A stretch of DNA of 61,643 nucleotides from Patescibacteria group bacterium (GTDB lineage Bacteria; Patescibacteriota; Microgenomatia; Daviesbacterales; UBA10151): contig CALRFD010000003.1 in NCBI GenBank assembly GCA_943356485.1, positions 101,815 through 163,457 of the forward strand, in the 5' to 3' direction. The position numbers were made by a program, and so were the translations under genes. Shown here piece by piece: positions 10,152 to 56,020 of the stretch (within the stretch, counting starts at the first letter, position 1; the number at the start of each line of letters is the position of its first letter). The notes under the pieces were generated by a model that worked only from the letters and a program-made list of their open reading frames with translations, was not told the origin of the DNA and did no database searches.

Positions 10152-10391
10152 TTATACTATCAATTTCTCTTTTTCTACCCTGTCAAACCTTTTTATTTCA
10201 GCTTCTCTTTTTCTGGCATCAGCTAGAGTCTCATATTCTTCAAAGTATTTTAAGCTCACCGGCCTTCTTATTTTTGTGTAATGCGCGCCGGTTTTAGATC
10301 CATTATGCTCTTTTAACCTTTTCTTCAAATTATTAGTACACCCGGTATAGTAAGTTAAATCTGCACATTGAAGAATATATACATAATACAT
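10152..10391 (-). CDS. GIY-YIG (URI) domain nuclease, small stand-alone
   Basis: MYYVYILQCADLTYYTGCTNNLKKRLKEHN...REAEIKRF. Confidence 0.8.
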   Translation of the reverse strand: MYYVYILQCADLTYYTGCTNNLKKRLKEHNGSKTGAHYTKIRRPVSLKYFEEYETLADARKREAEIKRFDRVEKEKLIV

Positions 10392-19496: not shown

Positions 19497-20576
19497 AGTT
19501 CACTACTTTTGAGACAATCTCCTTTCTTGTAAGTACTGGTAAGGTGATAAATATTCGAGTGACTGATGAGGTCTTTTTAGATTGTACCAGATGAGCCATT
19601 CTGTCAGTTTAACTTTAAATTCTTCTGGGTAAAGAAGGTAATCTTCAGCATCAAAGATGAACTCATCTTGTATAGGTCCAGTTAAACCTTTCTACATAGG
19701 CTGTTGATTTAGGGGATTTGGGATAGTTCCAAAGGTGAATTAAGTTTGATTCCTTTACAGCTTCTTCAAAGAACAACTCAAATTCAGAACCATTATCTGT
19801 TTGGATAGTATGTAATTTGTACCAAGATGTTTGGATAATTTCAGTCAAGATTTTAGCTGTATGTTTGCTTTTTAAGGATGGTACTAATTTTACCCAAGCT
19901 TGCTTTGTGACAATATCTACTGCTGTTAAAAAGTAATAATATCTACCTAGGTAGTAAAATTTAACTCCATCTAGCTGGATATATCCAGGTTTTGTATCAG
20001 AGGCTTTAGGAGTACCTTTAACTCTGGTTTTACCTGAGTTAGGTCTAGCTTTTCTTCCTCTTCCTTTACCTGCAAAGAACAGATTGTTTCTTTTAATTAC
20101 TTTCCCAATAGTTGACTGAGCCAATGTTTCAATACCTACCTCTTTGCAAAACTCATCCACAAACCTTTTAATTTTAGCTTTACCCATTCTGGGATACTTC
20201 AGTCTCAAAGATTTAATCAAGGAATATACAGAAGGTGGAGTTTGCATAAATCTAACTTTCTTAGGTTTAGTTGATTTAGGTACCAATGAATTTAGTCTCT
20301 TGCCTGAGCTTTCATATGCTTTCTTCCACCTGTACAAAGTTGCTCTTTTGAGATTTGGGAAAGCCAGTTTAACAGCACTCCATCCTGATGCATAAAATAC
20401 CTCCAGTACATGGAATCTAAATTTAGCCTCATCTGATGAGTCAAACCCCATGATAGTCTCAAGTGTTTGCATGAGGCTAATGTAATCTCTCCTTGAGAAT
20501 TTGGGAAGAGCATAAATTATCTTGTTAAAATCACTTGGCAATTATTTAATTTGTCTCAAATGTATCGTAACTTTTT
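19497..20576 (-). mobile_element. IS481/IS3-like insertion sequence
   Basis: Bounded by a 13-bp direct repeat AATTTCTTGTCCT (19484..19496 and 20577..20589). Imperfect terminal inverted repeats AGTTCACTACTTTTGAGACAA / TTGTCTCAAATGTATCGTAACT. Carries an rve-type DDE transposase. Confidence 0.8.
19503..20541 (-). pseudogene. DDE (rve/integrase-core) transposase, frameshifted
   Basis: ORF 19663..20541 ends ...TDNGSEF...YVERFNWTYTR*. Another frame continues QDEFIFDAEDYL...WLIWYNLKRPHQSLEYLSPYQYL to a stop at 19503. An apparent 1-nt indel lies near 19668..19676. Confidence 0.7.
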
Positions 20577-20675: not shown

Positions 20676-20948
20676 CTAAAGCTTTTTTAATAATTCTATA
20701 CTTCCAGTTATTAATGCTTCCTTTTTAGCTCTAGTCCATCCTTTAAGCTGCTTCTCTCTTCTCATAGCTTTTAACTAAGTTGCATAATTCTCCGTATAAA
20801 CTATTTTAAAATCCCCATTATCTTTAGAAAACTTTGATGCTCTAGTTGTTTTGGATAAGTGATCCTTTAATCGTTGTTCTAAATTATTTGTTTGACCAAT
20901 GTATAACCTATTATTAGAGAACCTTAGAATATAAACTGCATAAGACAC
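20676..20948 (-). pseudogene. GIY-YIG domain gene with an in-frame TAG
   Basis: Manual translation: (GTG)SYAVYILRFSNNRLYIGQTNNLEQRLKDH...VYTENYAT*LKAMRREKQLKGWTRAKKEAL. The TAG is at 20775..20777. Confidence 0.6.
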
Positions 20949-32481: not shown

Positions 32482-34275
32482 ATGGACAATCAACTTAAAG
32501 TTGAAAATGCAGTTGCAGCAATAAGAGTTTCCTCAACACAACAAGGAACTGATGGTGATTCCCCTGAAGCCCAAAAAGAACAGATCGAACAGTTTGCCAA
32601 AAGACATAATATTAATGTTAAAAAGTTCTTTGTCTTTATGGAATCTGCCTCCAAAGAACAACAACCTATGCAGGAGGCAATTGACTACTGCAAGAATCCT
32701 AAAAACGGCATCCAACTATTTGTTATCAAATCCATAGACCGATTTACCAGAGGTGGTTCATATTCATATGACCATTTAAAAATGCAGTTGGAAAAGTGTG
32801 GTGTACAACTTGTTGATATTTACGGCATTATCAGTTCTCAAAAAGTTAATACTTTAGAACACTTGGGGGTTTCATTTAATTGGAGTGTTTACTCACCCAC
32901 TAAAAAAGCTGAGATTTTAGAAGCAGAGAGAGCCAAAGATGAGATGCGGGATATTATGTCCAGAATGATTGGAGCAGAAATACGATATGCCAGAATGGGA
33001 TATTGGGTACGGGAAGCTCCAATGGGATATCAATTAGAAAAGATAGAAACTCCTAATGGCAAACGTTGTATCTTAAAACCTCATCCGATTGAAGCACAGT
33101 GGTTTATTAAAATGTTTGAACTGCGTTGTAGAGGAACACTAAATGATCACCAAATAGTTGATGAGATTAATAAACTTGGATTTAAAGCACGGATAAAATA
33201 TGTCAGAGACCCACAAGACAGAACCAAAATAATTAAAGAGCATGGTGGAGGTAAACTGAATGTTAAAGCTTTATGGCGATATATTCAAAATCCAACATAT
33301 GCAGGAGTAAGTGGAGAAAAATGGACAGAAAATCATAGGATAAAAGCTAAGTTCGAAGGATTAGTCTCCATAGAGACTTTTAATAAAGCCAATAAAGGAA
33401 AAGTGGTAATTTCAGAAGAAGATGGACAGGTAAAAATCTACCAAAGACCAGCACCGGAGTATTTAGTTAAAAAAGGCGTTAGAAATCCAGATTTTCCCTA
33501 TAAACGAGTTGTCATGTGTCCTCATTGTGAGAAGCCACTCTTTGGTAGTGCTTCAAGAGGAAGACTTGGTAAATACTATCCTGCGTATCATTGTAACAAG
33601 CGCGGACACTATTTTAGAGTATCTAAAGAGGCTTTAGAAGGAGTTGTGGAAAGGTTTGTACAGAATATTGATCTAGCACCGGAATTTGCTCCTGAATTAA
33701 CTTCAGCAGTCATAAATGAGTGGGACAAGAGACAACTAGAAATGACTAAGGACACAGTGAATATTGACAACAAACTCGAAGAGCTAAAAACCCAAGTAAA
33801 ACTAACGGTCGATAAAATTAAGATATTAACTTCTGAAGTTGCCATTAAATATCTTGAGCAAGACTTAATTAAACTGGAACAAGAGATTGGAGATTTAGTA
33901 TTAGAGAAAGAAAAAGCAGACCAGGAAAAACCAACAGATGCACGGATTGTGATGGCCTACATCAAATACTTTCTGGAACACATGGATGAATTACTACTTT
34001 CGAACCCAGATCCAGAAAATAAAGCGGGGCATTTTGGTGTTTTATTTGATAAAGCCCCTACCTATGAAGAAATAAATTCTGGAACACCACAAATAGCTTC
34101 TTGTATCAGCCTAAATGAGATATTTAGGCAGGGTCAAGGTATGTTGGCTGGCGGTCTATCGAAAAATTCGAACGCAATTCCAATCGCATTGAGTCGAAAG
34201 ATGCCCCGCCTGCGGCGGGGCTTTTATCTGTATCCGCTCGGCCTTCGGCCTCGCTCTGGTATTTTTTGCATATAA
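32482..34275 (+). CDS. large serine recombinase (recombinase 1)
   Basis: AAIRVSSTQQ catalytic-Ser region, IKSIDRFTRGG, zinc ribbon CPHCEKP...YHCNKRGH, coiled-coil tail. The last ~43 codons lie in the 97-bp inverted repeat and terminator, so the true stop is uncertain. Confidence 0.85.
   Translation: MDNQLKVENAVAAIRVSSTQQGTDGDSPEAQKEQIEQFAKRHNINVKKFFVFMESASKEQQPMQEAIDYCKNPKNGIQLFVIKSIDRFTRGGSYSYDHLKMQLEKCGVQLVDIYGIISSQKVNTLEHLGVSFNWSVYSPTKKAEILEAERAKDEMRDIMSRMIGAEIRYARMGYWVREAPMGYQLEKIETPNGKRCILKPHPIEAQWFIKMFELRCRGTLNDHQIVDEINKLGFKARIKYVRDPQDRTKIIKEHGGGKLNVKALWRYIQNPTYAGVSGEKWTENHRIKAKFEGLVSIETFNKANKGKVVISEEDGQVKIYQRPAPEYLVKKGVRNPDFPYKRVVMCPHCEKPLFGSASRGRLGKYYPAYHCNKRGHYFRVSKEALEGVVERFVQNIDLAPEFAPELTSAVINEWDKRQLEMTKDTVNIDNKLEELKTQVKLTVDKIKILTSEVAIKYLEQDLIKLEQEIGDLVLEKEKADQEKPTDARIVMAYIKYFLEHMDELLLSNPDPENKAGHFGVLFDKAPTYEEINSGTPQIASCISLNEIFRQGQGMLAGGLSKNSNAIPIALSRKMPRLRRGFYLYPLGLRPRSGIFCI
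34147..34243. repeat. 97-bp perfect inverted repeat, arm A (partner 46584..46680)
   Basis: Direct comparison: 34147..34243 equals the reverse complement of 46584..46680. Similarity continues imperfectly for about 17 nt. Confidence 0.9.
34203..34227 (+). terminator. intrinsic terminator inside repeat arm A
   Basis: GCCCCGCC-TGC-GGCGGGGC followed by TTTTAT. Confidence 0.6.
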
Positions 34276-34314
34276 CATAAAGACAAATGCGCGCGATTTT
34301 TATATCTATCTATA

Positions 34315-34332
34315 GTCCCGCTACCGCGGGAC
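34315..34332. repeat. GTCCCG..CGGGAC hairpin, copy 1
   Basis: tAGTCCCGCTACCGCGGGACGt; compare 46530..46548 and 49258..49276. Confidence 0.5.
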
Positions 34333-34368
34333 GTTAAGACATTAAAATAATTTAAACAATTTTTTAAT

Positions 34369-34520
34369 TCACCGTTTCGGGCTTTTGTAAAGCCCTAATC
34401 ACCGTAAAACGGTGAACGGTAACGGTAGCCTTACCGTAATTTAGGCTCTAAATTAAGCTAATCACGGTTGAACCGGTGCGTAGTACCGTTGCCTTTATCC
34501 GTTAACCGTACCGTAACGGT
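34369..34520. repeat. iteron-like cluster of ACCGT/ACGGT pentamers
   Basis: 6 ACCGT + 5 ACGGT copies in 150 bp, several as dyads (TCACCGT-AAA-ACGGTGA at 34399..34415; TACCGT-A-ACGGTG at 34509..34521). Confidence 0.7.
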
Positions 34521-35155
34521 GAAAAGCAAAAAACACATAGAGAAAAACAAAATAATCCCTAGGCTTTACTAAATCCCTACATCCCACCCACCCAAATAAT
34601 TGTTGGCGGCACCCCCGCTTTGTCGCTTGCTCGTTTTTACTGCGAAGCAGGAGCTTCGCTCATTTTAAGAAACATCTTATAGAGGTAACTCGCTGCGCTG
34701 GGCGAGAGGGCTCCCTAGGGGGAGCCTCACCCATATCTTCGGCTTCGATTTAGTCTTTACAGTCTCTACCTCGCTACGGGATTAGAGTTTAGTTTTTATA
34801 ATCATGGCATACACCCTCGCTCCCTTTTTTCTGTATATTAACCTCCTGCCGTTGCGGGGGTAATTCCTTTTTGCCCCCGCCTTTTTTATCTATACCCCTG
34901 TCTGTTTCCGGCCGTTCGCTTGCTCTCAAGAGCTGCGCTTCACGAAGCGGTTCCGATGGCTCGGGCCGATGGTACAAATCATCAAGTAAATCTATCGGCC
35001 CTCGCGGAGGTCGGGCAGCACCCAATTTAGTTTTATCTAAGTTCCGAAAAATCTCCTTCTAATGGTGCTGCCCTCCTTTTTTGGGACTATATACCTTGGC
35101 TGGCGGGGGCAGGAAGCCGCCAAAATAATAATGTCGCTTTTGTTATAATGCAAAA

Positions 35156-35953
35156 ATGCCTACAGTTAACGATAAACATTATTATCAGAGTTTCGCAAAA
35201 GAATTAGATAGTAAGTTAGGTAGGATAAACTCATTAATAAATAACCACCCTGGAGAAAAAGGAAATTACCATGAGTATATCCTTAAAAATTTAATATCTA
35301 ATTACCTTCCTTCAAGATATTCTGTTAAAACAGGATTTATTTATGTAGATGATACTCATGTTAGCCCTCAAATAGATCTTATGATTATTGATGAATCTCA
35401 ATCTCCATGTTTTTTGGCTCAATATAATGATTTTGTTGTTACTTACCCTGAGGCAGTTTGTTGCGTTATAGAGGTTAAAACAACTCTTGAAATTGAGGAA
35501 TTCAAAGAATCCACAAATCTAATACAGTTAGTCAAAAATTTAAGTCAATATAATAATCCTAAGGGTGAGGTAATAGGTGGGTTAATTTTTGGCTTTGGGG
35601 GAACTAGATTTAGACCAAAAACTTTAGATAATTGGTATAAAAATAAAATTGAATGTGATTTTACGGAATATCCAGAAGCCATTTTATCTCTCAAAACAGG
35701 ATTAATATTAAAGCATCATCTAAATACTGCTTATGAAGGACACTATTTTATTACAGGGGAAAGTGATTCTTTAAAATGGAAATCATTATCAATATTTATG
35801 GCTATAATTATAAAATTTTGTGAATTAAGATCAGGTGTAGAAAGACCAGAGGGAAAGAATGCATTTGAAAGATTTTCTCTGATACGAGATTTAATGCTAT
35901 CTGCTGAGTTTTTAAGGTACAAAATCGGATTACAAACAAGAAGTAAAAAATAA
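35156..35953 (+). CDS. PD-(D/E)xK-type nuclease-like protein (DUF6602-like N-terminus)
   Basis: GEKGNYHEYILKNLISNYLPSRYSVKTGFIY...SPQIDLMIIDES...VIEVKTTL (D..ExK). Confidence 0.5.
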   Translation: MPTVNDKHYYQSFAKELDSKLGRINSLINNHPGEKGNYHEYILKNLISNYLPSRYSVKTGFIYVDDTHVSPQIDLMIIDESQSPCFLAQYNDFVVTYPEAVCCVIEVKTTLEIEEFKESTNLIQLVKNLSQYNNPKGEVIGGLIFGFGGTRFRPKTLDNWYKNKIECDFTEYPEAILSLKTGLILKHHLNTAYEGHYFITGESDSLKWKSLSIFMAIIIKFCELRSGVERPEGKNAFERFSLIRDLMLSAEFLRYKIGLQTRSKK

Positions 35954-46529: not shown

Positions 46530-46548
46530 GTCCCGATTATATCGGGAC
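46530..46548. repeat. GTCCCG..CGGGAC hairpin, copy 2
   Basis: tAGTCCCGATTATATCGGGACGt. Confidence 0.5.
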
Positions 46549-46583
46549 GTGTTCGAGCCGACAGTTTAGAGCGGTAGGCCTCC

Positions 46584-46680
46584 GGCCGAGCGGATACAGA
46601 TAAAAGCCCCGCCGCAGGCGGGGCATCTTTCGACTCAATGCGATTGGAATTGCGTTCGAATTTTTCGATAGACCGCCAGC
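46584..46680. repeat. 97-bp perfect inverted repeat, arm B (partner 34147..34243)
   Basis: Reverse complement identical to 34147..34243. Confidence 0.9.
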
Positions 46681-46885: not shown

Positions 46886-48424
46886 ATGAAATATATAGCA
46901 TATTGCAGAAAATCTACAGATGAACCAGACAGACAGATCCTCTCCATTGAGGCTCAAATTGCAGAAGTTAAGGAGTTTGCAGAGAGAGAAGGTTTAGAAG
47001 TAGTTAAATTTATTACCGAGAGTAAAACTGCTAAAGAACCTGGAAGAGAAAAATTTACAGAACTTATAAGGATGTTGGAAGCAGGAGAGGCTAATGGAAT
47101 CTTGAGTTGGCATCCGGATAGATTAGCTAGAAACTCGATAGACGGAGGAAGAATTATTTACCTTTTAGATACAGGTAAGTTACTTGACTTAAAGTTTCCT
47201 CAATTTTGGTTTGATAATACTCCTCAGGGAAAGTTCATGCTAAATATTGCTTTTGGGCAAAGTAAATATTATGTAGACAATTTATCTGAAAATGTTAAAA
47301 GGGGTAACAGACAAAAACTTCGTAGAGGTGAGTGGCCTAATCACGCACCATTTGGGTACATTAATGACTCGAGGACAAAACTTATTCAGATAGATAGGAA
47401 ACGAGCTCCGTTTTTAGTTAAGGCTTTTGAAATGTTTTCAACTGGTGGATACACCTATGTAGACATCATAAATTATTTTACTAAGAATAAAGTATTTAAT
47501 ACTTCTAATGGAGATAGAATTTTCCATAAAGATAAGATGAAAAGAATATTAGGAGATCCTTTCTATACAGGATTGATGAGATTTAATGGTGAACTATATG
47601 AGGGGAAGCATAAATCTTTAATAACTAAAAAGCTATTTGACCAAGTTCAGGAAATAATTAAATCCAGGAATAGAAAACAAAAAGTTATTAAACAGGAGTT
47701 TGAATTTTTAGGACTAATGATGTGTAAAGAATGTGGTGGAGCAATAACTGCTGAAAAACATACAAGATTTTATCCCAGAACTAATAATACTGTAGATTTC
47801 ATTTACTACAGATGCTCTAAGAAAAAAGGCTACTGTTCACAAAGGTACGCTAAAAAAGATGATATAGAGCAACAGATTAAGGATGCTGTGTCAAAAGTTT
47901 CTTTAACCGAGTTTGCCGCCAATAAATTCCTAGAATGGGCCAATAAAGATGCTGAGAAAGAAAAGACAAAAGTATCTGGGTTAATAGAACAGTTAAAAAG
48001 AGAACTCAAAGAAACCGAAGAAAAATTAGATAGATTACTTGAAGGCTACCTAGACAAAGTAATTGATTCCCAAGAATATCAACATAAAAAGAACGTCCTA
48101 ATACAAGAAAAACTATCATTACAGGGAAGAATTAAGGAAATTTCAGAGCGAGGCACTGAATGGCTCGAACCACTCAAAAACTTCATTGGTAGCGCACTTT
48201 CGTGCGCAAAAATCGCGCGCGCAAAAAATACCAACCATGATTTGGCAATCATGGTAAAAACTGTCGGCTCGAACTTCTTTTTATTCAATCAACAACTTCA
48301 AGTGGAATATCAAAACCGAGGCTGGAAAACCCTCGCAACGTACCCCCTCCCCGCGATTTCTGACGTTCCGCGCCCCTCCGATCCAGATTTGCTGCGGGAC
48401 ATGGATTCGAACCATGATAGATAG
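46886..48424 (+). CDS. large serine recombinase (recombinase 2)
   Basis: AYCRKSTDEPDRQ..SIEAQ, WHPDRLARN, zinc ribbon CKECGG...YYRCSKKKGYC, coiled coil. The last ~38 codons lie in the IR and tRNA-Gln, so the true stop is uncertain. Confidence 0.85.
   Translation: MKYIAYCRKSTDEPDRQILSIEAQIAEVKEFAEREGLEVVKFITESKTAKEPGREKFTELIRMLEAGEANGILSWHPDRLARNSIDGGRIIYLLDTGKLLDLKFPQFWFDNTPQGKFMLNIAFGQSKYYVDNLSENVKRGNRQKLRRGEWPNHAPFGYINDSRTKLIQIDRKRAPFLVKAFEMFSTGGYTYVDIINYFTKNKVFNTSNGDRIFHKDKMKRILGDPFYTGLMRFNGELYEGKHKSLITKKLFDQVQEIIKSRNRKQKVIKQEFEFLGLMMCKECGGAITAEKHTRFYPRTNNTVDFIYYRCSKKKGYCSQRYAKKDDIEQQIKDAVSKVSLTEFAANKFLEWANKDAEKEKTKVSGLIEQLKRELKETEEKLDRLLEGYLDKVIDSQEYQHKKNVLIQEKLSLQGRIKEISERGTEWLEPLKNFIGSALSCAKIARAKNTNHDLAIMVKTVGSNFFLFNQQLQVEYQNRGWKTLATYPLPAISDVPRPSDPDLLRDMDSNHDR
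48311..48394. repeat. 84-bp perfect inverted repeat, right arm
   Basis: Identical to the reverse complement of 46677..46760. Overlaps the tRNA-Gln 3' end by 3 nt. Confidence 0.9.
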
Positions 48425-48462
48425 CTCCAAAGGCTATCGTCCTGCCATTAGACGATCCCGCA
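48392..48462 (-). tRNA. tRNA-Gln (UUG)
   Basis: Hand fold: U1-A72 acceptor TGCGGGA/TCCCGCA, G73, anticodon loop CTTTGGA, T-arm CATGG-TTCGAAT-CCATG. Confidence 0.85.
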
Positions 48463-48831: not shown

Positions 48832-48877
48832 GAACTGGACTTTTTTCGAGTGTAAGTGATAAAATTCCTTTTGTGCT

Positions 48878-48950
48878 GCCGCAGTAGCCAAGGTGGTCAA
48901 GGCGGGCGCCTGAAGAGCGTCTTATATTGGTTCGACTCCAGTCTGCGGCA
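48878..48950 (+). tRNA. tRNA-Phe (GAA)
   Basis: Hand fold: acceptor GCCGCAG/CTGCGGC, anticodon loop CTGAAGA, T-arm ATTGG-TTCGACT-CCAGT. The D-arm is unusual (A13-A22). Confidence 0.7.
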
Positions 48951-48985
48951 CCCTTCGAAGCTTTGCTTCTCAGGGCAAGCCCTTT

Positions 48986-49291
48986 ATGGCTCATTTTATT
49001 TACATTTTAGAATGTAAGGATGGCAGTTATTATACAGGTATCACCTGGAATATAACTAAAAGAGTCAATGAGCACAGTAATAGATTGTCTTTGGCAACAA
49101 AAGCAAAGCTTCCGATTAAGTTGGTGTATTGGGAAAGATTGGAAAATAGGTTTTTAGCAGCTAAGAGAGAAAAAGAAATTAAGGGCTGGTCAAGAGTTAA
49201 GAAGCAGAGATTGATAAGTAGTTTAGATAAAAGTGTAACAAGAGTAGTTTACACTGAGTCCCGATTTAGTCGGGACGAAGTGCGGGAGTAA
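48986..49291 (+). CDS. GIY-YIG (URI) domain nuclease
   Basis: MAHFIYILECKDGSYYTGITWNITKRVNEHSN...REKEIKGWSR. The stop codon lies inside a copy of the tRNA-Gly 5' end. Confidence 0.8.
   Translation: MAHFIYILECKDGSYYTGITWNITKRVNEHSNRLSLATKAKLPIKLVYWERLENRFLAAKREKEIKGWSRVKKQRLISSLDKSVTRVVYTESRFSRDEVRE
49258..49276. repeat. GTCCCG..CGGGAC hairpin, copy 3 (inside the GIY-YIG 3' coding region)
   Basis: gAGTCCCGATTTAGTCGGGACGa. Confidence 0.5.
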
Positions 49292-49359
49292 CTCAGTGGG
49301 TCGTGCACCACTTGGTGCATGACGGGAATCTAAATGATTCCCCGGAAGAGTGCCTCGTT
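49281..49359 (+). pseudogene. tRNA-Gly 5'-half pseudo-copy split by a 44-nt hairpin insert
   Basis: 49281..49299 equals 49418..49436 of the intact locus. 49344..49359 (GGaAGAGTGCCTCGTT) matches D-stem to anticodon-loop positions. It diverges exactly at the anticodon. Confidence 0.7.
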
Positions 49360-49418
49360 TTCTGCAAAGCAGAAATGAAGAACAGAGATTTAGTTTAAGG
49401 CTAAGTGTTAGTTTGATT

Positions 49419-49490
49419 GCGGGAGTAACTCAGTGGTAGAGTGCCTCGTTGCCAACGAGGATGTCGCGGATTCGAGTTCCGTCTCCCGCT
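49419..49490 (+). tRNA. tRNA-Gly (GCC)
   Basis: Hand fold: acceptor GCGGGAG/CTCCCGC, anticodon loop TTGCCAA, T-loop TTCGAGT. Confidence 0.9.
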
Positions 49491-49610
49491 CACCTTAAAT
49501 AGTAAAAGGATATGTGCCGATCTAGGTCAAATGGAAGGTGGTATGTATTTCTTAAATTTTTTAAGAAGAGGTGTCAAGCCTGCCTCGCCCGCTTTCCAGC
49601 GAGGTCAACC

Positions 49611-49641
49611 GGCAAGGCGGGCTAGTCCGCCCGAAGGGTGG
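49611..49641. repeat. REP-like UUCG-hairpin element, copy 3
   Basis: GGCGGGCTAGTCCGCCCGAAGGGTGG; family consensus AGGTGCCrrGCTAGwCCrCCCGAAGGGTGG. Confidence 0.65.
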
Positions 49642-50413
49642 GAATGCGAAGGGTGGTAATAATTTTATCTAAGTCTTCCGGAACTATAATTTGATTAGAA
49701 TCCCACAATAGCAAGTTTGCACACATCCATCTTAATCCTTGCCACAAATACCTGTATCTTCCCGCAGTTGGTTTTTCTACAAAGTCATCGGTTGATACCG
49801 AAAATCCACTCCCAATATTACTGACCCTGGGTCGTGCTACCTTTCTATCGTCAAAGAATCCACCAAATTTGTACTCACCTCCTGCATGTTTACCTTCCAA
49901 AAGAGAAAAATGAGAGCTGAGACGAACAACGTTTTTAGTGGGGTGCGTAAATTCCATATAGCTATATATACTAAATGGATTATATGGCTCAATTCCACTA
50001 TTATATCTTTCAGAAGCAGGGTAGGCTTCCGTAAAAGGTTTTAAGAACAATTCAAGTATAAGATCGTCACGCTCCGCAACCTCACCCCTTTTATCCACCA
50101 TTTTCCATCCGCCGTTCGAATCGTCTTCATACTGGTGAAAGCGCTTTAATCTTAGAGCCATCGCATGATTTTTGCGCGTGGTCTCCCAAAGATCATCACT
50201 AAAATATGGGGCAATGTCTCGATGAGTAAAATGTTGGGTTGGAGAATCGAGAAAAATTTGTTTAGCAACTACCCGCAGGGAAGATTTAATTTCTTTTATA
50301 AAAGCAGTTTGATCCACTCCTGGACGCAATCCTAAACTCCCTGGGGAGGATTCAGGAGTTTTAACGACCCATCTTAAAGTATGCACTGCCTCTTCGAAAT
50401 TTAATTCACTCAT
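49622..50413 (-). CDS. hypothetical protein
   Basis: 263-aa ORF. Its C-terminal ~10 codons are encoded by the REP-like element. No motif recognised. Confidence 0.4.
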   Translation of the reverse strand: MSELNFEEAVHTLRWVVKTPESSPGSLGLRPGVDQTAFIKEIKSSLRVVAKQIFLDSPTQHFTHRDIAPYFSDDLWETTRKNHAMALRLKRFHQYEDDSNGGWKMVDKRGEVAERDDLILELFLKPFTEAYPASERYNSGIEPYNPFSIYSYMEFTHPTKNVVRLSSHFSLLEGKHAGGEYKFGGFFDDRKVARPRVSNIGSGFSVSTDDFVEKPTAGRYRYLWQGLRWMCANLLLWDSNQIIVPEDLDKIITTLRIPTLRAD

Positions 50414-54950: not shown

Positions 54951-55058
54951 ATTTCGTCGTTTTACTCCTCAATATAAACTACTTGACCTCAGTATTTTAA
55001 ACCAAGTCTTATCTAAACACCATAACTACTAACAGTTTACCCTGAACTTCGTGAAGGG

Positions 55059-55189: not shown

Positions 55190-56020
55190 TTATTCGACTC
55201 CTAAGAACCTCAAAGGTATTTTTTCAGCTAAACTGATCCAGTCTCTTCCTGGTTGTCCTGCATCTGTAAACCATTTCTGTATGTCAATTTCTCTTGGACT
55301 AACCTCAAGTCTCCTGCTTACATCTGCTTTTATATCCTCAATGCCTATTACCAACCGCTCAGAACGATCCTCTATAATTTTATACCTATGCGACCAAACA
55401 GAAACTGTGTTATCCCTAACTACAGGTTTGGGTTCTGGTTTCTTTGAGTCTTCATCAATTGCATCATACAACCATACCCCATCATGCTTATACAACTCCA
55501 CACGTCTTTCGTAAAGACCACCTTCTAGCTCCACCAATGGCTCTAGAGCAAATGCAAAGCTATTAATTAAACCCCCATTTACGTACGTATTATAATTAAG
55601 ATGATCTTTACCACTTATTGCCCATATACCTAACTGCATTCTTAATACATCTGCCCTAGCTAGATCTGTAGTTTGTGAAACTTTAACCCAAGAACAACTG
55701 TTATCAGTAGGATGATAAAAAACAAGCTCTTCACTGATACCATTAACTGTGCTTTCAGGTCTGAAATCATGTCTTAGAATTCTTCTGGTAGCTGACGGCC
55801 TTCCATCGGGTTGAAGAGAAACATTATCAACTCCTTTAAAAACTTCATTATGCCATGAAAAGCTATAATATCTGCTGTCCAAATCTGCTTCCAAAACTAT
55901 AACATCTGATGCAGAAAACAATTCAGGATCATGATAATTGCTTTTTAGGTAAGTACTAAGTAAAGCTGGTATTTCGGGCGCAGGGTTTGGTTTTAACTCG
56001 CTTTCTAATCGGCTACTCAT
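55190..56020 (-). CDS. hypothetical protein
   Basis: ORF track 55190..56179, but the first 53 codons overlap tRNA-Leu(CAG). Start moved to MSSRLESE. Confidence 0.4.
   Translation of the reverse strand: MSSRLESELKPNPAPEIPALLSTYLKSNYHDPELFSASDVIVLEADLDSRYYSFSWHNEVFKGVDNVSLQPDGRPSATRRILRHDFRPESTVNGISEELVFYHPTDNSCSWVKVSQTTDLARADVLRMQLGIWAISGKDHLNYNTYVNGGLINSFAFALEPLVELEGGLYERRVELYKHDGVWLYDAIDEDSKKPEPKPVVRDNTVSVWSHRYKIIEDRSERLVIGIEDIKADVSRRLEVSPREIDIQKWFTDAGQPGRDWISLAEKIPLRFLGVE

Follow-up and report, generated by a model that had tools for sequence, protein, structure and literature searches.

Putative miniature GIY-YIG nuclease cassettes layered in a tRNA operon of a Patescibacteria genome

Why a gene for a small GIY-YIG protein should lie between two transfer RNA (tRNA) genes, followed by a broken copy of the 5' half of one of them, is the question raised by a locus on contig CALRFD010000003.1 of a Patescibacteria group bacterium (Candidate Phyla Radiation, CPR). 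The whole stretch of DNA analysed, hereafter the window, comprises 61,643 nt with 36.8% G+C and eight tRNA genes. Its best protein matches are in metagenome-assembled genomes (MAGs) of Daviesbacteria, Woesebacteria and other Microgenomates, and the metagenome runs that contain its sequence derive from lake water. An open reading frame (ORF) of 101 aa (48986-49291, + strand; Pfam PF01541, E=1.6e-14) is wedged between tRNA-Phe(GAA) (48877-48953, +; ARAGORN, Rfam 58.3 bits) and an intact tRNA-Gly(GCC) (49419-49491, +; ARAGORN, Rfam 67.1 bits), with the broken tRNA-Gly copy between the ORF and the intact gene. It is one of four GIY-YIG copies in the window, two of which adjoin tRNA genes and two of which do not. 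With slightly better than even confidence, we read this locus as two layers of miniature selfish nuclease cassettes living in Patescibacteria tRNA operons.

The broken copy begins with a segment 'a' (49282-49299, +) that reproduces tRNA positions 1-18 exactly and is interrupted in the D loop by a 44-nt insert (49300-49343, +) made of two GC-rich stem-loops. The first (49300-49323) reads GTCGTGCACCA-CT-TGGTGCATGAC, with the core TGCACC-ACTT-GGTGCA, and the second reads GGGAATC-TAAAT-GATTCCC (49324-49342). Segment 'b' (49344-49359, +) then resumes at tRNA positions 17-32, with 15/16 identities to 49435-49450, and stops directly ahead of the GCC anticodon; a 59-nt spacer (49360-49418, +) leads to the intact gene. 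An earlier note, made from the sequence alone, had anticipated this anatomy, and all of its elements were recovered: a 19-nt exact copy of the tRNA-Gly 5' end at 49281-49299 (repeated at 49418-49436, with 1 nt of flank plus tRNA positions 1-18), an insert of two perfect hairpins, a copy that resumes and breaks at the anticodon, and an intact tRNA-Gly some 60 nt further on. The 18-nt piece exceeds chance expectation (E=5e-5, blastn-short of tRNA-Gly against the window), the 137-nt Gly module as a whole (49282-49418) has a fold z-score of -5.7 against shuffles, and only two of the eight tRNAs in the window, tRNA-Gly and tRNA-Leu(CAG), possess an extra partial copy.

Comparison with other genomes separates two kinds of cassette, types A and B. 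The type A survey covered 80 related loci from species-representative genomes, of which the 36 that are at least 55% identical to the consensus constitute type A; these were ascribed to Patescibacteria by tRNA context and, where informative, by sequence labels, several of which were wrong. Adjacency of GIY-YIG and tRNA genes, the survey that the earlier note had set as its own test, proved strongly enriched: a same-strand tRNA lies on at least one side in 36/36 type A loci (one of them cut by a contig end) and on both sides in about 32, and type B1, described below, contributes 56 of 80 loci plus 7 in mirror arrangement. The commonest type A order is Phe-ORF-Gly(GCC), and Leu(taa)-ORF-Pro, Pro-ORF-Gly(tcc) and Arg-ORF-His also occur. 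Distant homologues (Bacteroidota, Ignavibacteria, Cyanobacteria and others) have no tRNA within 4 kb, and in this respect the UPF0213/COG2827 homologues fetched from outside Patescibacteria are unlike type A.

Type A occupies the whole spacer from one tRNA to the next, has inverted repeats at its two ends and duplicates no tRNA. Its leader, with the consensus CACTTCG-(variable hairpin)-CTCAGTGTAAAC across 30 related loci, directly follows the upstream tRNA, with 4-8 nt to the ATG in most; its trailer, with the consensus GTTTACACTGAG-(variable hairpin)-CGAAGTG, overlaps the last ORF codons and extends to the first base of the tRNA that follows. In 30 loci the leader and trailer 12-mers can pair at 10-12 of their 12 positions, and true compensatory changes are few, so that an RNA stem and a DNA inverted repeat are not distinguishable in the type A ends. 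Empty Phe-Gly spacers measure 4-8 nt (L001, L099), as against about 300 nt when filled. Similarly, several other genomes have 0-6 nt in the Leu(gag)-Val spacer, as against 105 nt in the window, where it is filled by an ORF-less type A remnant running from leader TTCACGAAGTTCAGGGTAAAC to trailer AGTTTATATTGAGGAGTAAAACGACGAAAT (54951-55055, -, between tRNA-Leu(GAG) and tRNA-Val); spacers of intermediate length in some genomes are also ORF-less leader-plus-trailer remnants. The gene is present or absent at a conserved site, as is characteristic of GIY-YIG homing endonucleases, in comparisons of empty and filled sites made between distant genomes rather than strains.

The window copy of the type A cassette is anchored on its left by tRNA-Phe, whose 3' end abuts the leader or left inverted repeat (48954-48985, +), CCCTTCG-(GAAGC-TTT-GCTTC hairpin)-CTCAGGGCAAGC. 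The trailer or right inverted repeat (49246-49281, +), composed of AGTTTACACTGAG, the hairpin GTCCCGATTTAGTCGGGAC and CGAAGT, stops at the first base of the old tRNA-Gly. Motif residues Y6, Y16, G18, R26, H30 and E62 are all present in the encoded protein. Type A homologues have 81-82 aa and the C-terminus ...SLH*, as against 101 aa in the window, where a 26-nt duplication (AGTTTA at 49220-49225 and again at 49246-49251) removed the SLH* stop and the last ~20 codons are read-through past it; the closest relative, L161 (81% aa identity), keeps the normal SLH* stop, and its tRNA-Gly follows 21 nt further on. The earlier note had remarked that the ORF takes its stop TAA from within the tRNA copy, and the position is real but accidental, because the 26-nt duplication destroyed the normal stop.

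A promoter-like site, TGGACT-18-TAAAAT with a TG, is situated 12 nt upstream of tRNA-Phe (48836-48865, +), and apart from a weak site within the ORF no comparable promoter was found between tRNA-Phe and tRNA-Gly. A Phe-GIY-Gly transcription unit starting at this site is likely, and we infer that it is a single unit; RNA runs shared about 5% of their words with the window, in the form of tRNA pieces of other organisms, and yielded no transcript evidence. In the minimum-free-energy fold of the window's own copy the leader-trailer stem is not formed because the window leader has diverged, and the pairing becomes clear only in comparison of the whole family. A 12-nt stretch of the leader (48957-48968, GAAGCTTTGCTT) is perfectly complementary to an ORF-internal stretch (49101-49112, AAGCAAAGCTTC), and the predicted fold uses this pairing, which could reflect chance or translational control. 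The trailer hairpin GTCCCGATTTAGTCGGGAC (49258-49276) has a near twin, GTCCCGATTATATCGGGAC, at 46530-46548, in the intergenic region upstream of a serine recombinase gene.

Type B follows a different layout, in which an intact tRNA immediately follows the ORF, or in rare cases precedes it, and a truncated copy of the same tRNA flanks the ORF. The window example is the Leu locus, whose partial copy and GIY-YIG gene are as previously described: an 83-aa ORF (56402-56151, -; Pfam PF01541, E=1.4e-14) stands between the intact tRNA-Leu(CAG) (56150-56064, -; ARAGORN, Rfam) and a pseudo 5' half (56464-56407, -) that consists of tRNA positions 1-22, the palindrome CCTGCCTGCCGGCAGGTAGG (56442-56423) and positions 23-38 through the anticodon loop. 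Only 4 nt separate the pseudo-half from the ATG and 0 nt the stop from the tRNA 5' end, and a promoter-like site (56496-56469, -) lies just upstream of the truncated copy. The protein of this locus defines subfamily B1, with 120 homologues, of which 80 metagenome loci were examined. A same-strand tRNA occurs within 30 nt downstream of the ORF, sometimes overlapping it, in 56/80 loci, where position alone would predict about 2-4% (8 tRNAs in 61.6 kb); the mirror arrangement is found in 7/80 (five counted, plus L100 and L134 read from the sequence), and the remaining 17 are mostly cut by contig ends. The neighbouring tRNA is mostly Leu, with all five isoacceptors represented, and in other loci Asn, Glu, Arg, Met, Pro, His, Lys or Cys.

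The idea that small GIY-YIG genes duplicate the 5' half of a tRNA up to the anticodon loop finds a parallel in type B, whose ORFs as a rule have a truncated tRNA copy beside them, but not in type A, which duplicates none. Nor is the break fixed at the anticodon loop. In B1 the truncated copies end at positions that range from 17 to 60, most commonly 28-40, and the ATG follows after a few nt; mirror-image 3' copies also exist, in which the order is intact tRNA, ORF and then a 3' partial copy carrying the palindrome in its T arm.

Each type B subfamily carries its own hairpin. In subfamily B2, recognised through a locus with the order Phe, type A, pseudo-Gly, B2 ORF, tRNA-Gly (L005), the hairpin GTCGCC-(GC/AC/TA/AA/TTA)-GGCGAC exactly replaces the anticodon arm of truncated Gly(GCC), Gly(TCC), Ala and Asp copies, and further subfamilies (L001, L008, L072 and a Glu clade) carry different GC-rich hairpins, placed in the D loop; across B1, B2, the Glu clade and type C, the kind of hairpin changes with the nuclease subfamily. 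Boxes of -10 type lie 5-10 nt upstream of the pseudo-halves. Type B loci also exist in ORF-less versions (L083, L121), as stacked pseudo-halves (L031) and as tandem arrays of pseudo-tRNA plus ORF (L208-L210). In L198 the allele of the intact tRNA-Gly differs from that of the pseudo copy beside it, which would be expected of a cassette that imported its own tRNA sequence; L203 has the same layout with smaller differences, and pseudo and intact alleles also differ in L081, L089 and L090. The nearest protein neighbour is associated with the same tRNA amino-acid identity in 53 of 65 cases, with occasional jumps. At L194 (460-900), the tRNA copy that comes after a typical B-type cassette with pseudo-tRNA, palindrome and ORF is interrupted at its anticodon by an island. 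This island has genes for a large serine recombinase, for a primase-polymerase and for type III restriction-modification, with a weak HNH match below the Pfam cut-off, so that two kinds of tRNA-targeting element are stacked at one tRNA.

The B1 hairpin is a 20-nt perfect palindrome, CCTGCCTGCCGGCAGGCAGG, with 64 exact copies in the 80 B1 loci, and in 54 of these loci it lies within 120 nt before the ATG (at most 3 mismatches). Its left flank ends at tRNA position x and its right flank resumes at x+1, with x = 9, 11, 12, 15, 17, 18, 20, 22-24 or 39, which identifies the palindrome as a clean insertion. Such a clean 20-nt insertion was seen in most B1 loci that could be aligned to their downstream tRNA, in Leu, Asn, Pro, Arg and Lys copies; truncated copies beside His, Met and Glu tRNAs contain a variant hairpin instead. 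Among the CPR loci, 55 of 80 palindrome copies lie 0-80 nt upstream of a GIY-YIG start and most others just downstream of one, as mirror arrangements; the 61.6 kb of the window contain one copy, a natural variant. Sense-strand G.U mismatches outnumber A.C mismatches among palindrome variants by 13 to 6 (p=0.08), or by 13 to 4 in a hand count from which three misaligned 16-nt forms were dropped, a weak excess that faintly suggests a role for the hairpin in RNA as well. An origin of the palindrome as a sequencing adapter or assembly artefact was rejected: it matches none of the adapter sequences considered, is present in NCBI, ENA, JGI and Logan assemblies, has natural variants and occurs in a specific context. 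The palindrome was also met in 35 IMG/VR contigs (L163-L197), 34 of which have no GIY-YIG gene in the fetched locus and are mostly of 54-68% G+C; there it often sits between direct repeats of 5-14 nt, and in L164 and L187 within the variable region of tRNA-Met.

These observations invite explanations that do not involve selfish mobility, the best surviving of which, although we regard it as unlikely, is that the genes have been domesticated. They would then be vertically inherited host genes of the tRNA operon, acting in repair of heavily transcribed tRNA DNA or in RNA processing, and the truncated copies and hairpins would be processing or stability signals of an mRNA embedded in a tRNA precursor. 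Consistent with this, the Phe-type A-Gly order is kept across Daviesbacteria, Woesebacteria, Roizmanbacteria and Wildermuthbacteria, purifying selection acts on the motif residues, a stem of about 20 bp between leader and trailer could unite the two tRNA ends, wobble pairs exceed A.C mismatches on the sense strand in both the type A stem and the palindrome variants (13 against 4-6), and the ORFs appear from their context to use the tRNA promoter. Host genes would not, however, be expected to occur so patchily, with empty spacers of 0-8 nt in related genomes, to leave pseudogenes, ORF-less remnants and tandem arrays, to be present as several divergent copies per genome at different tRNAs and to jump between tRNA identities, and two of the four window copies have no adjoining tRNA at all.

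Slightly less probable still is that the hairpins, above all the 20-nt palindrome, are independent elements resembling REP or MITE sequences (repetitive extragenic palindromes and miniature inverted-repeat transposable elements) that settled in dead tRNA copies, with the GIY-YIG protein as their RAYT-like mobiliser or unrelated to them, and with the tRNA duplications as separate events. The clean insertion of the palindrome at many different positions fits such a life, as do its copies in 34 high-GC IMG/VR contigs whose fetched loci have no GIY-YIG gene, where it is often bracketed by short direct repeats or, in L164 and L187, placed in the tRNA-Met variable region, and some copies in CPR loci that lie away from any ORF. 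It is harder to reconcile with the position of 55 of 80 CPR copies within 80 nt upstream of a GIY-YIG start and of most others just downstream, with the one copy in the 61.6-kb window, unlike dispersed REPs, with the way in which hairpin type follows nuclease subfamily, and with the exact replacement of the anticodon arm by the B2 hairpin in four tRNAs, which is not random insertion.

Under the two-layer cassette reading, the remaining matter is the origin of the Gly pseudo-half itself. Segment 'a' occupies the place where relatives have a functional tRNA-Gly, and the 137-nt module is absent both from L161 and from a groundwater contig (run X4; joint 49241 to 49430). In both, tRNA-Gly starts where segment 'a' does, so the pseudo-half is the original 5' end of tRNA-Gly, and the 137 nt of the module (49282-49418) were added later. 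The earlier note had credited the pseudo-half to the neighbouring GIY-YIG gene, an attribution that is not supported, that gene being of type A, the class without tRNA duplication. Judged by its sequence features, the Gly pseudo-half probably records a type-B-like event and the loss of the ORF that went with it, because type A does not duplicate tRNA and a hairpin-bearing pseudo-half is the signature of type B; the module consists of a 5' copy that breaks off before the anticodon and has two hairpins in its D loop, followed by a 59-nt spacer, and it fits this class with the ORF deleted. Analogous hairpins occur in truncated tRNA copies beside type B genes at more than 60 other loci, and the 44-nt insert would accordingly be a conserved, subfamily-specific type of module rather than random decay. 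The 59-nt spacer is possibly the remnant of a deleted type B ORF: it has a 16-nt exact match (TTTTCTGCAAAGCAGA) to the interior of the B2-type ORF of L031, weak at E=0.019 in a small database, and one of its frames reads ..VFCKAEMKNRDLV*, compared with ..FFCKADARHRE.. in that ORF. Beyond this match, a similarity search with the 44-nt insert and the 59-nt spacer returned no convincing relatives. Contigs of two lake samples (runs X2 and X3) match 49278-49589 with 13 differences and have unrelated sequence (..TTGGGAGAATATCCA) left of 49278, which points to a co-occurring strain with the Gly module and no type A cassette before it.

The same module could in principle be an att-type scar of an integrase-driven element that was later lost, which we consider very improbable. 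A large serine recombinase is indeed encoded 0.5 kb upstream, its gene (46886-48424) ending beside the tRNA-Gln anticodon, and in L194 a tRNA is cut at the anticodon by a serine-recombinase island; but only 137 nt lie between the Gly repeats, what is duplicated is a 5' half into which hairpins are inserted, more than 60 loci show this architecture with a GIY-YIG gene but without an integrase, and the window recombinase is tied to tRNA-Gln rather than tRNA-Gly. Chance replication slippage followed by random decay, with accidental hairpins, would suffice for one isolated locus but is the least credible account of all, given conserved hairpin sequences that recur across many genomes and tRNA types and a fold z-score of -5.7.

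The cassette reading, which we continue to favour, would resolve the locus as follows. In the first layer, a type A cassette of leader, 81-aa nuclease gene and trailer would have entered a former Phe-Gly spacer of 4-8 nt. The second would be the left scar of a type-B-like event in tRNA-Gly, which left the resident 5' part with two stem-loops in its D loop; its nuclease ORF would since have been deleted, 59 nt remaining, and the complete downstream tRNA-Gly would keep the cell viable. The general architecture recurs in more than 100 independent loci, and empty, filled, ORF-less and tandemly re-invaded sites all exist.

As to how such cassettes might move, we suppose that the nuclease would break a tRNA gene and that repair would copy from a cassette-bearing allele, whose truncated and intact copies would each pair with one of the broken ends, so that everything between would be copied in. 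Truncated copy and intact tRNA would then serve as portable homology arms, allowing entry into any genome that has that conserved tRNA, whatever genes flank it; the partial copy would be integral to the element because flanks outside the tRNA are not conserved between genomes. Copying through such arms would give rise to tandem arrays on re-invasion, to allele differences between pseudo and intact copies, and to relatedness that tracks tRNA identity with jumps; if the intact copy that survives were invaded repeatedly, tandem arrays as in L208-L210 and stacked halves as in L031 would result. The hairpin may remove or split the cleavage site in the truncated copy, thereby conferring immunity, in B2 at the exact place of the anticodon arm, and it would also interrupt a direct repeat that might otherwise delete the ORF. 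Without a promoter of its own, the ORF would be transcribed from the tRNA promoter and released by tRNA processing; the -10 boxes upstream of pseudo-halves and tRNA-Phe indicate that it probably does ride on the tRNA promoter. Decay products are on record in the pseudogene at 20775-20948, the ORF-deleted cassettes (L121, L083 and window 54951-55055) and the lost stop codon of 48986-49291.

Several points weigh against this account. Nuclease activity on tRNA genes, the target site and mobility are only inferred, and how a core of about 80 aa lacking a DNA-binding domain would recognise a tRNA gene is unexplained. The intact tRNA copy beside a cassette should stay cleavable, which the model leaves unsolved, and it likewise leaves unexplained the clean insertion of the palindrome at a new position in each colonised tRNA. 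The Phe-type A-Gly order, kept over wide phylogenetic distances, could reflect vertical inheritance of a useful gene. The palindrome may have an independent life, being found in 34 mostly high-GC IMG/VR contigs whose fetched loci lack a GIY-YIG gene; four runs (X1-X4) yielded no variant of the Leu locus free of the cassette; and the assignment of the 59-nt spacer to a deleted ORF is a weak one based on a 16-nt match.

By sequence, the cassette proteins belong to the GIY-YIG superfamily: Y6, Y16, G18, R26, H30 and E62 are invariant in alignment A1, and Y5, Y16, G18, H30 and E62 are invariant and R26 nearly so in alignment A2. Within it they have the single-domain form of UPF0213/COG2827 (YhbQ-like), a family with a norm of 78-83 aa that consists of the catalytic core only. 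Their sole sequence relatives in the Protein Data Bank (PDB) are 1ZG2 (BH0048, E=1e-20) and 1YWL (EF2693, E=3.5e-18), of the same size and single-domain architecture, both called hypothetical UPF0213 proteins by their depositors. GIY-YIG homing endonucleases of the I-TevI and Seg kind have the catalytic domain fused to a C-terminal DNA-binding domain, and Seg proteins reach about 200 aa or more with their DNA-binding modules. No such C-terminal domain was found in the cassette proteins, in which Pfam detects only PF01541 and about 80 aa leave no room for another. In the AT-rich mitochondrial genomes of fungi, GC-rich palindromes likewise flank tRNA genes, GC clusters are mobile and free-standing GIY-YIG ORFs occur; those palindromes differ from the present ones in sequence and host, and they are not known to lie in truncated tRNA copies or to stand in a one-to-one relation to a nuclease ORF.

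By analogy, SegB of phage T4 is the closest working analogue. SegB is described as a free-standing GIY-YIG homing endonuclease encoded in a tRNA gene cluster, which cuts the tRNA region of a related genome and spreads together with its flanks (PMC2330249), and a 2026 paper ties it to segmental amplification of a tRNA locus (PMC13096335). The likeness lies in a stand-alone GIY-YIG gene between tRNA genes. The differences are the host, a phage rather than a cellular CPR genome, and the cassette proteins, which are putative nucleases with a catalytic core of about 80 aa only; truncated tRNA copies and a conserved hairpin module were not encountered in the SegB abstracts consulted. Like integrative elements that are directed to tRNA genes and bring a replacement tRNA segment with them, the cassettes occupy a tRNA gene and leave intact and truncated copies as direct repeats; unlike them they have no integrase, span about 0.3 kb, duplicate either a 5' or a 3' part and carry a hairpin in the truncated copy. 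GIY-YIG ORFs have also been reported in non-intron insertions of CPR rRNA genes (PMC11270868). These share with the cassettes the clade, the protein family, a location in stable-RNA genes and the fact that they are not group I or II introns, but they lie within rRNA genes, and the main text of that paper never mentions tRNA. GIY-YIG genes are furthermore listed among Patescibacteria genes passed to other bacteria, in a paper whose main text leaves tRNA unmentioned (PMC12455944).

Three conventional explanations of the repeats were considered and set aside. An integrase island was rejected on finding no recombinase ORF between the repeats, which are 137 nt (Gly) and 314 nt (Leu) apart. A group I intron in the anticodon loop does not fit, as Rfam detected only tRNAs, the junctions at the Leu locus are 4 nt and 0 nt, and a full tRNA follows rather than a 3' exon; over the whole window, at the gathering threshold, Rfam reported no RNA family other than tRNA. 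A split or intron-containing tRNA of archaeal type was discarded because no 3' half follows the pseudo-halves, ARAGORN and Rfam make no call there, and a complete gene stands alongside. A literature search retrieved no paper linking GIY-YIG genes with tRNA genes in CPR, no match for YhbQ combined with GIY-YIG, and neither the 20-nt nor the 18-nt palindrome string; nor was a known counterpart of the hairpin-bearing truncated tRNA module found.

Beyond the two cassettes, the window contains a GIY-YIG gene with no tRNA neighbour (10152-10391, -), located inside a protein-coding operon with 12-nt spacers, and a GIY-YIG pseudogene with an in-frame TAG (20775-20948, -), also without a tRNA neighbour; the latter is preceded by a GC-rich leader-like sequence, TCCTGAGCGACTGAAAGGAGTCGAAGGA, and lies about 230 nt from a 292-aa ORF (19663-20541). 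A 276-aa ORF without Pfam match (55190-56020, -) fills the 921-nt gap between tRNA-Leu(CAG) and tRNA-Leu(GAG), and it is taken as another insertion into the tRNA operon because the same two tRNAs are 6-24 nt apart in other genomes. Past tRNA-Gly, region 49560-49660 holds a cluster of GC-rich hairpins with two CACCCTTCG motifs on the minus strand that resemble the type A leader; within it lies a dispersed repeat, GGCAAGGCGGGCTAGTCCGCCCGAAGGGTGGGAAT (49610-49644), and other contigs of the same runs have only these ~32 nt in common.

The serine recombinase gene (46886-48424, 512 aa) overlaps, with its 3' end, the 3' half of tRNA-Gln (48391-48462, -) up to the anticodon. Inverted repeats of about 115 nt (34150-34265 and 46563-46678) bound a segment of about 12.3 kb that ends beside this gene and whose layout suggests an integrated or invertible element that uses the anticodon loop of tRNA-Gln; a search of the window for a displaced half of tRNA-Gln found none. 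Near the left repeat, 34275-35156 has no ORF of at least 70 aa on the + strand and is unusually GC-rich, and GC hairpins occur at 34203, 34315, 34642 and 34709.

Taken together, the cassettes constitute a widespread and apparently undescribed family of genes for nucleases of about 80 residues in tRNA operons. We place this family with free-standing homing-endonuclease-like cassettes, and there is a real chance that hairpin-marked tRNA duplication represents a new mobility strategy. More tentatively, and with somewhat less than even confidence, we propose an undescribed class of minimal mobile element in Patescibacteria, of about 0.3-0.4 kb, comprising an 80-aa GIY-YIG gene, a subfamily-specific stem-loop, tRNA homology arms and sometimes a replacement tRNA. 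Such elements would invade tRNA genes and junctions and ride on tRNA promoters, the stem-loop marking the disabled copy and serving as a cis-site of the nuclease or an immunity patch.

If mobile, these would be among the smallest nuclease-encoding elements known to us, and they would exemplify a new selfish route to an essential and conserved target, which is duplicated in part, has its spare copy disabled by a hairpin and supplies, as tRNA, a portable homology. If the proposal is true, it would provide a function for the large orphan family UPF0213/COG2827 and would account for the abundance in CPR tRNA operons of partial tRNA copies, which can mislead the annotation of tRNAs and the assembly of MAGs. 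The small proteins and their conserved palindromic partners would then provide a tractable means of finding out how a minimal GIY-YIG core recognises DNA or RNA.

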